In this document: positions 6,303-8,918 of the stretch, one piece after another
Numbering within the stretch: position 1 is the stretch's first letter
How the letters are laid out: each line of letters opens with the position of its first letter
Assembly (NCBI GenBank): GCA_947307295.1
Contig: CAMZIQ010000001.1
Coordinates: 40,968-104,967, forward strand
Reading direction: 5' to 3'
DNA: 64,000 bases
Source of the DNA: an uncultured Pseudomonadota bacterium
Lineage (GTDB): Bacteria > Pseudomonadota > Alphaproteobacteria > Rs-D84
Translations under genes and position numbers: made by a program
Notes under the pieces: model-generated
Database searches by the model: none
What the model was told of the DNA's origin: nothing
What the model saw: the letters and a program-made list of their open reading frames with translations, nothing else

Positions 6303-8918
6303 TTATCCCATGCTGGCATCATCGTTTCCTTGCGATGATTTTGTAAACAAGCCAGTCAATTTGTCTTTTATTTTTTGACCGAGATTTTTTGTTTTTAATT
6401 TAATAATTTCTTTTTTAGGAATCCCGTAAATTTTCCCGTTTGGATTAAATTTAATACTTGTCACTTTTGATAAATCAGTACCTCCTAAATCTAATTCTTC
6501 AACCCCACTAAAATCTATATCACCGTGTAAACCTTTTGCATATTGCAAATATATTTTTTTCGCATTTGTAAATTTAATGCTTGTCACTTTTGATAAATCT
6601 GCATTTTCTAAATCTAAATATTCAGCCCCGCTAAAATTAAAATCTAAATCACCGTGTAAATCTTTTGCGCCATTTAAATCTATTTTTTTTACATTTGTAA
6701 ATTTGATGCTGGTCACTTTTGATAAATCAGTACCTCCTAAATCTAATTCTTCAACCCCACTAAAATCTATATCACCGTGTAAACCGTTCACTGAATTTAA
6801 ATATATTTTTTTCGCATTTGTAAATTTAATGCTTGTCACTTTTGATAAATCTGCACACCTTAAATCTAAAAGTCCAACCCCACTAAAATCTAAATCGCCA
6901 TGTAAATCTGTTGCGTATGTTAAATCTATTTTTTTTACATTTGTAAATTTGATGCTGGTCACTTTTGATAAGTCAGCATCGTATAAATATAAATTTTCAA
7001 CCCCACTAAAATCTAAATCACCGTGTAAACCTTTTGCATATTGCAAATATATTTTTTTCGCATTTGTAAATTTAATGCTTGCCACTTTTGATAAATCTGC
7101 ATTTTCTAAATCTAAATATTCAGCCCCACTAAAATTAAAATCTAAATCACCGTGTAAACCGTTCACTGAATTTAAATATATTTTTTTCGCATTTGTAAAT
7201 TTAATGCTGGTCACTTTTGATAAATCAGTACCTCGTAATTTTAAATCTTCAACCCCGCTAAAATCTAAATCGCCATGTAAACCTGTTGCGTATGTTAAAT
7301 TTATTTTTTTTACATTTGTAAATTTGATACTGGTCACTTTTGATAAATCTGCAAACATTAAATTTAAATCTTCAAACCCGCTAAAATCAAAATCACCATG
7401 TAAACCTGTTGTTTCCGTCAAATCTATTTTTTTTGCATTTGGGTTAAATTTGATACTGGTCACTTTTGATAAATCTGTGCGGAATAAATCTAATTCTTCA
7501 ACCCCACTAAAATTAAAATCTAAATCTCCGACAAGAATAGCTCTGCGTAAATCAAAACCTTTAACAAATTTCATTGGTTTGATTTTATCTAAATCTGCCT
7601 GTTTAATCTTTTTATTTGCAAATGATACAGTGTCAATCTTTGATATATGCTTTATATTTGCACCCTTGGTCATAAGCAAATCATAAGGCATCCAGCTAAA
7701 TTCTGTATTTTCGGGTAAATTAAATATATCAACAGTTTTATCGTTTTTATCTTTGATAAAACCGATATTTGAATAATCATATAATTGGCGTTTGCCCTGC
7801 GCTTTATCATCAGGGAAAGCACAATTTAATTGTTCTTTTAAAAATTGACGAACTGGTATAATGTAATCTGCATTTACTAGTCCATTAGAATTCCCTTTGA
7901 CCTGGGTAATAACGTTGCCATTAACCTCTATAGTGCAATGTGGAACCAATTGCCCATTTGGTTTGCGTTCACGCAAAGAATAATACTGATTATCCTTTTC
8001 TTTTAAAATTTTTGTTGAATATGATTGTTCTTTTTTACCAATACATATCCCCATTTGATTGCCCTCATAAACCAAATTACGATGTTCTTGGTGTTCATTA
8101 TAATAATCTGTATCTGGCATCAATCGATACATCACCAAACCTTTTCCAAAATCTTGGACGGGTTTAATACCAATCTGGCTTTGTTCTATTTGTTCTGCTT
8201 CACTTTGTTTTTTATTATTTTCTTCAGCAATACGCGTCAATAAACCATTATATACGTTTACTATGTTATCAGCAGTCAATTCACCAAACGGTATATCTAA
8301 TTCTTTGGCGATATTTTTGATTATTTGAACCATAGATGATGGTTCAGTTATTTTTGCAGCCAAACTGCCACCGAAAATATAATCTGCAAAATCTGAAATT
8401 TCCCGGAAATTGCGTGCCATTTGTGAAGATTTGAATTCGTGTTCGTCCGCATAAAGAAAAATGTCACCAGGCTTTTTTTCTGTCTTGAAATTTTCGTTTT
8501 TTACACATTCGTTGGCAATGTATCGCAAACAAGCATATTTTTTTATCACAGGGTCCAAAGATGAAAAACCATGTTGAATTTTTTCCGCGATAGTCATTTG
8601 TTGCAAATTTTTCAAAATGCCTTTTTGTTTATTTAATCTTGCCATCGCAGCCCTGAATTCTTCTGCGGGAGTTTTTTCTTTTGCTGACTTTTGTGCGTTT
8701 ATCTTTGCATCTTTTAATTCAATCGCATTATTTATTTTTTGAATTCTGGCATCGTATCGTTTGCTGTTTTCTTCTGCGTCTTCTATGGCTTTGTCATAAG
8801 TATCGCCGTTGTTTCTGTTAAAAACCAATGTTGCCATAACATTAGCATATTCGTGTTCATGCGCCGAATTTTCAAAAATCATTTCACGAATTAAATCTTT
8901 AAGTTTTCTTAATGCCAT
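6303..8918 (-). CDS. large repeat protein: ~460-aa N-terminal domain of unknown function plus about nine tandem 40–42-aa LRR-like beta-solenoid repeats (candidate host-interaction/effector protein)
   Basis: Repeats such as ADLSKVTSIKFTNAKKIYLQYAKGLHGDLDFSGVEELDLGG. The 20-aa sub-units have the L/I/V/F spacing typical of LRR-like solenoids. The underlying DNA repeats are near-identical. Confidence 0.75.
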   Translation of the reverse strand: MALRKLKDLIREMIFENSAHEHEYANVMATLVFNRNNGDTYDKAIEDAEENSKRYDARIQKINNAIELKDAKINAQKSAKEKTPAEEFRAAMARLNKQKGILKNLQQMTIAEKIQHGFSSLDPVIKKYACLRYIANECVKNENFKTEKKPGDIFLYADEHEFKSSQMARNFREISDFADYIFGGSLAAKITEPSSMVQIIKNIAKELDIPFGELTADNIVNVYNGLLTRIAEENNKKQSEAEQIEQSQIGIKPVQDFGKGLVMYRLMPDTDYYNEHQEHRNLVYEGNQMGICIGKKEQSYSTKILKEKDNQYYSLRERKPNGQLVPHCTIEVNGNVITQVKGNSNGLVNADYIIPVRQFLKEQLNCAFPDDKAQGKRQLYDYSNIGFIKDKNDKTVDIFNLPENTEFSWMPYDLLMTKGANIKHISKIDTVSFANKKIKQADLDKIKPMKFVKGFDLRRAILVGDLDFNFSGVEELDLFRTDLSKVTSIKFNPNAKKIDLTETTGLHGDFDFSGFEDLNLMFADLSKVTSIKFTNVKKINLTYATGLHGDLDFSGVEDLKLRGTDLSKVTSIKFTNAKKIYLNSVNGLHGDLDFNFSGAEYLDLENADLSKVASIKFTNAKKIYLQYAKGLHGDLDFSGVENLYLYDADLSKVTSIKFTNVKKIDLTYATDLHGDLDFSGVGLLDLRCADLSKVTSIKFTNAKKIYLNSVNGLHGDIDFSGVEELDLGGTDLSKVTSIKFTNVKKIDLNGAKDLHGDLDFNFSGAEYLDLENADLSKVTSIKFTNAKKIYLQYAKGLHGDIDFSGVEELDLGGTDLSKVTSIKFNPNGKIYGIPKKEIIKLKTKNLGQKIKDKLTGLFTKSSQGNDDASMG
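6400..7525. repeat. near-identical tandem DNA repeats (about 120–126 bp units forming a 252-bp higher-order unit) inside the repeat-protein gene
   Basis: For example 'gataaatcagtacctcctaaatctaattcttcaaccccactaaaatctatatcaccgtgtaaacc' recurs at 6469 and 6721; 'acatttgtaaatttaatgcttgtcacttttgataaatc' recurs many times. Confidence 0.85.

Follow-up and report, generated by a model that had tools for sequence, protein, structure and literature searches.

The gene analysed here lies on the minus strand of a 64 kb stretch of DNA, the whole of which is called the window, from an uncultured alphaproteobacterium. At positions 6303..8918, a complete open reading frame (ORF) runs from its ATG to its stop codon and encodes a protein of 871 amino acids (aa), the length given in the first-pass annotation of this DNA, with a frame that stays open across all 2.6 kb. 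The product joins a conserved head to a C-terminal array of leucine-rich repeat (LRR)-like coils (Table 1), and it is in this array that two strains differ in unit number and that amino-acid replacements gather at a small set of positions. A 100% identical protein (P0001) is deposited in NCBI/ENA on a 253,987-bp contig, and homologs with an intact ORF number 35; no further copy of the gene was detected in the window by tblastn. Judged from its sequence, the ORF can be regarded as a real and constrained gene, because the ratio of nonsynonymous to synonymous substitution rates (dN/dS) of the head is 0.20, because the ORF is intact in all 35 homologs, and because it has its own promoter-like site after the terminator of the preceding gene.

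Table 1. Parts of the 871-aa protein and adjoining features, in window coordinates (pLDDT, predicted local distance difference test)
Feature	Position	Strand	Basis or remarks	Sequence
Intrinsic-terminator-like hairpin, ends upstream ppiD-like gene	8975..9008	-	15-pair stem, 5 G-C pairs, then T tract	AAAAAATCGCCCAAACGGGCGATTTTTT
Best sigma-70-like promoter match, TTAATA-17-TATAAT with TG extension	8948..8976	-	10/12 matches; consensus match only	
N-terminal peptide, aa 1-35	8814..8918	-	Conserved family-wide; AlphaFold pLDDT ~35-55	
Helical region, aa 36-250	8169..8813	-	Long helical hairpin (38-116), then helical bundle; AlphaFold pLDDT mostly 75-94	
Divergent PcfJ-like alpha/beta core, aa 251-440	7599..8168	-	Profile and fold searches	
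LRR-like beta-solenoid, ~19 coils, aa 441-831	6426..7598	-	Repeats, AlphaFold, Foldseek	
Degenerate unit 0, aa 441-481	7476-7598	-	Repeat analysis	
Eight full 41-43-aa double units	6477-7475	-	Repeat analysis	
Half unit, aa 815-831	6426-6476	-	Repeat analysis	
Basic amphipathic helix (835-860) and polar disordered C-terminal end, aa 832-871	6306..6425	-	AlphaFold; residues 856-871 pLDDT <50	
recO	5644..6291	-	Co-oriented; begins 11 bp past the stop of the 871-aa ORF	

Units of the array and their divergence between strains

The first-pass annotation had placed a tandem array in the C-terminal half of the protein. Tandem Repeats Finder confirmed it as a single array spanning roughly 6440-7530, with a period of 123 bp (8.6 copies, 6446-7517, 79% matches), higher-order periods of 375 bp (83% matches) and 498 bp (86%), and scores of 1183-1646 that are far beyond chance. 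The start-to-start spacings of the units are 123, 129, 123, 123, 123, 129, 123 and 126 bp, in place of the periods of 120 and 252 bp given initially, the latter arising only as 123+129. The full units share 75-93.5% pairwise DNA identity, with a synonymous divergence of ca. 0.29 in their framework, values at odds with the description of the repeats as nearly identical; the best long pair (6446-6745 versus 6944-7243) is 90% identical. The earlier count of about nine repeats of 40-42 aa, each made of two 20-aa units, agrees well with the eight full units, one degenerate unit and one half unit listed in Table 1, and the part preceding the repeats measures about 440 aa instead of ~460 aa.

All eight full units begin with DLSKVTSIKF and consist of two sub-repeats of 20-21 aa. 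The pattern per unit comprises two segments, V-E-x-L-x-L-x-x-(A/T)-D-L-S-K-V and K-K-I-x-L-x-x-(A/V)-x-G-L, in which the Asn position of LRR segments is filled by A, T, V or N. The units are thus of the kind by which LRR segments are recognised, namely tandem segments of 20-30 residues of the LxxLxLxx(N/C/T)xL type, and the repeat unit was found again in 35 homologous proteins. Antisense to the array runs a 369-aa ORF (6577-7686, plus strand) with a monotonous KSKSP/LMLVTFDKS sequence, which was rejected as a gene and considered a mechanical by-product of the repeats.

Strains were compared by means of the ortholog P0002, found at the same locus of an independent assembly from another sample (L008). 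The flanks of the two loci are 98.5% identical and the heads 95.5% (protein), and the array of the ortholog, 77% identical, is 55 aa shorter, with six full units versus eight in the window gene. Repeat number at this syntenic locus is therefore strain-variable, as had been predicted. The first two units match across strains at 87-88%, and among interior units identity reaches 91-94% inside one genome but does not exceed 85% when the two genomes are compared. Interior units that are closer within than between genomes bear the signature, at the level of sequence, of unequal recombination or gene conversion between units inside the array. The earlier proposal of a very recent expansion or ongoing concerted evolution can thus be retained for its second half, turnover being visible in the homogenised interior units, and finds no support for its first, the units differing by 7-25% in DNA.

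Between the two strains, the head shows a dS of 0.11 and a dN of 0.022, and its dN/dS of 0.20 indicates constraint. Flanking genes have dS values of 0.016-0.088 and dN/dS values of 0.00-0.27, bar the gene at 3423-4628, and replacements in the head are several-fold above those in most neighbouring genes. The gene set apart (3423-4628, minus strand) encodes a hypothetical protein of 401 aa that matches no family and has a dN/dS of 0.74 between strains.

The distribution of replacements inside the array was assessed by aligning the full units of the two strains, 14 in total; ten LRR x positions were fixed a priori, and dN/dS was calculated by pooled Nei-Gojobori counts. The framework is near-invariant across the 14 units, and nearly all variation falls at the x positions of I-x-L-x-x-x-x and x-L-x-L-x-x-x. 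dN/dS reaches 1.14 at the ten x positions versus 0.15 for the framework, which, given the small numbers and the non-independence of the pairs, represents a strong contrast and not proven positive selection. In LRR proteins, the x positions of the strand-plus-loop are ligand contacts.

Predicted fold of the array and relatives of the head

The AlphaFold model of the whole protein, built from a 34-sequence alignment, has a mean pLDDT of 81. Residues 441-831 are modelled as a beta-solenoid (pLDDT mostly 85-93), each coil of 20-21 residues having two strands, one long (DLSKVTSIKF or GLHGDLDFSG) and one short (KIxL or ExLxL). When this model was compared with solved structures by Foldseek, the top matches were LRR ectodomains, led by TLR2 (E 6.9e-5), TLR13 (8.3e-5) and GARP (1.4e-4). 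Together with TLR8 and RP105, these prediction-based matches cover E values of 6.9e-5 to 8.6e-4 and probabilities of 0.92-1.0; LGR4 and a Legionella LRR effector (4q62) were also among the matches. Their TM-scores were low because the full-length model was used. The LRR-like solenoid of 20-aa double units noted at first is thus backed by AlphaFold, by Foldseek and by the unit alignment.

At the sequence level, Pfam searches with the protein returned DUF6892 (PF21832; E 2.3e-11, 44.5 bits, cut-off 24.6). This match spans only profile positions 60-103 of 136 and recurs along the array, therefore pointing to a shared repeat type and not to a whole domain. No LRR family matched at E <=1 in Pfam, nor did the Pentapeptide hidden Markov model (HMM; PF00805), and a DUF2442 match (Pfam/NCBIfam) with no stretch passing was set aside as spurious. 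Searches of solved-structure sequences with the protein, the head profile and the unit profile gave nothing significant. Two homologs, P0007 and P0013, carry LRR_EndoS. The C-terminal part of a profile built from 52 distant PcfJ-headed relatives matched PcpA (7e-13), TLR13 (9e-13) and internalin A (4e-9), and because this profile matches solved LRR proteins, the modelled array is read as an atypical LRR-type solenoid, with a pentapeptide (Rfr) fold as a minority rival.

Were the array a square right-handed Rfr beta-helix, the protein would be a pentapeptide-repeat protein serving as a DNA mimic or scaffold like Qnr and MfpA, which appears distinctly unlikely. A coil of 20-21 residues equals four pentads, a partial A(D/N)LXX periodicity is found as in Qnr, MfpA and Np275/276, and seven homologs (P0017, P0018, P0020, P0021, P0024, P0025 and P0027, the last with E 2.9e-22) match PF00805. 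Likewise, the weak matches of the unit profile among PDB sequences were pentapeptide-derived designs (E 0.014-0.1) and Np275/276, internalins also being sub-significant. Yet A(D/N)LXX pentads can be read in only about half of each unit of the window protein, which itself has no Pentapeptide match, and its conserved xLxLxx(T/A)DLxxV is an LRR-type signature. Relatives' sequences, moreover, match LRR proteins at 1e-13, and the 50 best solved-structure matches of the model are LRR proteins, with no Rfr or pentapeptide-repeat protein among them. A more radical alternative, in which the array is mis-assembled or the ORF is a decaying, non-functional pseudogene, would owe its appeal to the source, a metagenome contig whose 123-bp repeats, up to 93% identical, are collapsible by short reads, and to the frameshift seen in one family member (L006). 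It is nevertheless very improbable in view of the intact frame over 2.6 kb, of the independent assembly that shows the same locus with an intact ORF, of the low dN/dS of both head (0.20) and repeat framework (0.15), and of the divergence between units, which at 6.5% or more is enough for unique read placement at most junctions. In the family, proteins with the same head range in total length from 593 to 1307 aa, and the 1307-aa member (~20 units) is identical in five contigs from at least three samples, which argues against wholesale assembly artefacts. The frameshifted copy (L006:9938-11669, in RGIG3440, a metagenome-assembled genome (MAG) from goat rumen) is split near codon 352, and its counterpart in L007, whose identity to it is 96% over the head and 79% over the array, is intact; the frameshift marks either a pseudogene or an assembly error.

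In the head, the N-terminal peptide keeps K5, K7, L9, R11, F15, Y24 and M28 at frequencies of at least 90% across the family, and the core (aa 251-440) contains the motifs YEG-x2-MGIC-IG, YYSLR, PHCTIEV and QVKGNSN. A head profile retrieved 297 cluster representatives at E <=0.001, with a shared core at profile positions 278-410; many of these are 350-600-aa proteins that share only these positions. The PcfJ-like family PF14284 was passed by six of ten sampled matches and reached E <=0.001 in 47 of the 52 long ones, with scores of 25.0 bits (equal to the cut-off) for the homolog P0011 and 16.8 for P0003. The N-terminal model (pLDDT 79) matched the folds of A0A6J5KJN7 (7.4e-7), A0A6J5KMI9 (1.1e-5) and a protein of Bacillus phage Shbh1 (2.9e-5), a comparison with phage PcfJ-like proteins in which the structures are predicted on both sides. 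Based on profiles and models, the head is best described as a PcfJ-like domain that has diverged and carries a helical extension specific to the family. What the first-pass annotation called a domain of unknown function is hence not fully anonymous, although the label holds in the sense that PF14284 is itself a family without known function.

The likeness to PcfJ-like proteins (PF14284, including PcfJ of pCF10 and proteins of Bacillus phage Shbh1 and Brochothrix phage A9, gp163) lies in the motifs of the alpha/beta core, YEG..M.(H/I)C(V/I)G, YSLR, PH(C/A)T(I/V)E and Q(I/V)KG..N. Unlike them, the window protein scores below the Pfam threshold, has a 250-aa helical N-terminal extension, is fused to a long repeat array, and is encoded on a chromosome amid housekeeping genes and not on a plasmid or phage. 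Only three residues never vary among the 52 distant relatives, those corresponding to E285, C292 and R316. Catalytic sites of the papain/NlpC-like Cys-His type, the sortase- or YkuD-like His-Cys-Arg type, PD-(D/E)xK and ADP-ribosyltransferase motifs were considered and found unsupported, because distant relatives do not conserve His327, Cys328 and His279 and because no fold match supports any of these sites; STAT3 (E 0.2) was likewise rejected as a fold relative and ascribed to helical-bundle noise. The literature on PcfJ with pCF10 or conjugation yielded no functional study, and since PcfJ has no known function, the match supplies no mechanism.

Phages often carry PcfJ-like domains (PHROG families, BFVD matches), which are also common in many chromosomes and in conjugative elements, the family namesake coming from the Enterococcus plasmid pCF10. 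Among the 52 distant relatives, 13 carry LRR-type repeat families (LRR_EndoS, LRR_4, LRR_5, FNIP) and one more has pentapeptide repeats. PcfJ-like heads have also been described upstream of variable regions in targets of diversity-generating retroelements (DGRs) in bacteria of the candidate phyla radiation (CPR) (PMC5758913). The combination of a PcfJ head with a variable module thus recurs independently. The DGR targets with an N-terminal PcfJ-like motif (category g; PMC5758913) resemble the window protein in having a conserved head followed by a diversified C-terminal region. They differ in that the window protein diversifies by repeat turnover and point substitution in its LRR array, not by templated mutagenesis; neither a reverse transcriptase nor a template repeat was evident among the annotated neighbours, no scan having been aimed at either.

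Family, host and genomic surroundings

At the locus, the gene order is ppiD-like, the 871-aa gene, recO and dsbA-like. The promoter-like site upstream of the gene is the sole one with 10/12 matches within 5500-10700, and a GGGG Shine-Dalgarno-like run stands ~8 nt ahead of the ATG. No terminator is present in the sequence between the ORF and recO, and the two genes are probably co-transcribed.

Related loci were found in MAGs of uncultured Alphaproteobacteria from rumen and gut metagenomes (RUG13568, RGIG3440, UBA1185 and others), and the nearest relatives of the FtsH encoded in the window are all annotated "MAG: Alphaproteobacteria bacterium". Nothing in this set of rumen and gut relatives shows the intracellular lifestyle to which the first-pass annotation had alluded, and a literature search on RF32 with LRR returned nothing relevant. 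The neighbours are ppiD, recO, dsbA and tpiA in the window, and tRNA synthetases and rpsD at other loci; those of the L001-L007 type form at least three further positional groups, all amid housekeeping genes. A conserved operon partner was rejected because synteny comparison placed none of the window neighbours near the homologs in L001-L007. Two copies occur in one genome, RUG13568 (L001, L007). No PADLOC defence model and no PHROG matched the protein, and viral contigs carry only distant PcfJ cores with 27-32% identity. In one group of loci (L003:6857-7816, also L004, L005 and L017), a gene for a virB11-like ATPase ends 14 bp before the paralog; it matches TIGR02788 with E 2.6e-43, below the curated cut-off, and no other virB gene lies within 6-10 kb.

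Two proteins, P0019 and P0036, have an unrelated head of ~330 aa fused to the same DLSKVTSIKF/GLHGDLDFSG repeat framework, and their C-terminal tail is ~88% identical to that of the ortholog P0002. The array framework of P0019 is, like its tail, ~88% identical to that of the ortholog of the window gene. Their head family counts 2,675 matches, the majority annotated "MAG: Alphaproteobacteria bacterium" and the majority joined to LRR_5 repeats of the BspA type. These sequence identities suggest that the LRR-plus-tail module has been exchanged or co-homogenised between genes with different heads.

Several other features of the window were recorded. A 1307-aa protein (33661-37584, minus strand) with a C-terminal autotransporter beta-domain and repeats of the Chlamydia PMP type is likely a surface adhesin. 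A 635-aa protein (38478-40385, minus strand) has a C-terminal match to eukaryote-type Pkinase (E 7e-9), its gene lying within the stretch of lowest GC (38-44 kb, GC 0.30-0.33) and being followed by a family-2 glycosyltransferase, with several flanking ORFs lacking a family match. Finally, a 1-kb segment of the window (12300-13303) is missing from the otherwise collinear, 95-99% identical L008, in which rmlC directly precedes the ortholog of 13351-14310. It contains a 320-aa hypothetical protein (12338-13300, plus strand) with a hydrophobic, signal-like N-terminus and no Pfam/NCBIfam match.

Candidate roles of a head joined to a variable array

The protein resembles bacterial LRR proteins (internalins, YopM/IpaH-type, Legionella LegL and PcpA/BspA-type LRR_5 proteins) in its tandem repeats of 20-22 residues, its LxLxx(N/T)xL-type strand and its solenoid, in the variation of repeat number and in the gathering of variation on the strand-plus-loop face. 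In contrast to them, it passes no standard LRR model of Pfam, only DUF6892, its coils alternate in two types that form a 41-43-aa super-repeat, and the face opposite the variable sheet is a highly conserved beta-strand. Its head is PcfJ-like and not a cap/Ig domain or E3 ligase. Neither a signal peptide or type III signal nor an anchor is present. The maximum Kyte-Doolittle mean over 19 residues is 0.005 in the first 40 windows and 0.73 overall, thus revealing neither a signal peptide nor a transmembrane segment, and no lipobox, autotransporter domain, wall anchor or choline-binding domain was found; the protein is probably soluble. The evolutionary mode recalls lamprey variable lymphocyte receptors and the LRR domains of plant nucleotide-binding LRR receptors and receptor-like proteins, in which a framework under purifying selection bears hypervariable xLxLxx x positions and arrays are remodelled by unit recombination. 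This likeness is one of analogy and not homology, the window protein being bacterial and having neither a partner domain of the NB-ARC or TIR type nor a system for somatic assembly.

We consider it slightly more probable than otherwise that the protein couples a constant head to a fast-evolving LRR recognition module that binds a changing protein ligand. In such a protein, the conserved N-terminal peptide would be followed by a helical stalk, a PcfJ-like core with the invariant Glu-Cys-Arg set, a solenoid of ~19 coils and a cap formed by the basic helix. The solenoid would act as the recognition module, with the variable x positions and the loops that follow them as the ligand-contact face. 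Recombination or gene conversion between units of 123-129 bp would alter their number and homogenise the interior of the array, and amino-acid replacement would act at the contact positions. The conserved head may represent the constant "business end", an enzyme or a binder of a fixed partner, which the variable array would direct to a changing protein ligand or regulate in response to it. The constancy of the PcfJ-like domain beside a variable module, both here and in DGR targets, suggests that it is an output or catalytic domain.

Several points weigh against this interpretation. The dN/dS near 1 concerns only 10 codons in non-independent pairs and fits relaxed constraint equally, the facing of the variable residues is deduced from the motif and the modelled strand assignment, and the evidence for a difference in unit number comes from two metagenome assemblies, unsupported by reads. 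The sequence of the unit is no closer to LRRs than to pentapeptide-repeat solenoids, both resemblances being weak, and some homologs pass the Pentapeptide HMM. The protein itself has no PF14284 match at E <=1, no solved structure resembles its head (best E 0.2), and we know of no ligand, activity or localisation for any PcfJ-like protein.

Where such a protein would act is a matter on which we lean only slightly, towards export by a non-Sec route or an inter-organism role rather than one inside the cell, and the effector framing of the first-pass annotation is plausible. A type IV-secreted effector, exported by a VirB/D4-type system through its basic C-terminal tail and using its LRR array to bind proteins of another organism (a eukaryotic host, a gut protist or a competing bacterium), is a possible though rather unlikely form of this role. 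Besides the lack of a Sec signal or transmembrane segment, this would fit the Legionella LRR effector among the fold matches (4q62), an array that diverges quickly as in an arms race, and the paralog group (L003, L004, L005, L017) that starts 14 bp past a virB11-like gene. The last 50 aa have a net charge of +7, with a family mean of +5.25 versus +1.7 (standard deviation 3.9) for window ORFs, a measure of composition only whose excess lies within 1.4 standard deviations of a crude background, and the basic helix may merely cap the solenoid. No type IV secretion gene adjoins the gene, no secretion-system gene occurs among the ~27 of 57 window ORFs that are annotated, and tblastn over the whole 64 kb detected no virB11-like gene. 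The virB11-like neighbour of the paralogs stands alone, outside any virB operon and in one ortholog group only. An LRR adhesin displayed on the cell surface, like internalins or BspA, might be evoked by the variable unit number of the LRR-like array, as in surface adhesins, by the pneumococcal surface protein PcpA as the best solved sequence relative of the wider family's array, and by other surface proteins of the same genome, including the PMP-repeat autotransporter. With a conserved polar helix at the N-terminus and none of the export or anchoring features listed above, however, this role is barely credible. Unlikely as well, though less so, is a cytoplasmic conflict-system protein, in which the LRR array would sense a phage or plasmid protein, or a PcfJ head derived from phages or plasmids would counter defence, in a sensor-plus-effector-like arrangement without NTPase. 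The frequency of PcfJ-like domains in phages and conjugative elements, their presence as heads of DGR-diversified targets, the occurrence of several paralogs at separate loci of one genome (RUG13568, with L001 and L007) and the absence of an export signal are in line with such a function. But no PADLOC model matches, the protein lacks a STAND or any other NTPase domain, the gene stands single amid housekeeping genes, outside any defence island or mobile element, and the PcfJ cores of viral contigs are only distantly related.

For the reading we prefer, a constant head coupled to a variable LRR recognition module, part of the ground was already prepared: variable arrays are familiar from other LRR proteins, the PcfJ-like domain is already catalogued, and the protein had been deposited as hypothetical. 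New are the PcfJ-like identity of the head, the pattern of diversification and the link to a recurrent architecture of PcfJ head and variable module. These observations document array turnover together with contact-surface diversification in a large uncultured alphaproteobacterial clade of gut and rumen, and they make the array a strain marker as well as a place where short-read MAGs are likely to be mis-assembled. PcfJ-like domains would gain a first functional context, as the fixed element paired with a variable module for binding, with the invariant Glu-Cys-Arg set offering targets for mutagenesis. A broader idea, speculative and on balance improbable, is that PcfJ-like heads with fast-diversifying recognition modules, whether LRR arrays, as here and in numerous relatives, or regions mutagenised by DGRs, as in CPR bacteria, form a widespread and undescribed class of targeted effectors or sensors, which would be multi-copy in this clade and have its LRR-plus-tail module swapped between heads. 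If true, it would amount to a cassette-like repertoire for recognising changing partners. The expansion of "head + LRR" families in this clade hints at intensive protein-level interaction with other organisms.

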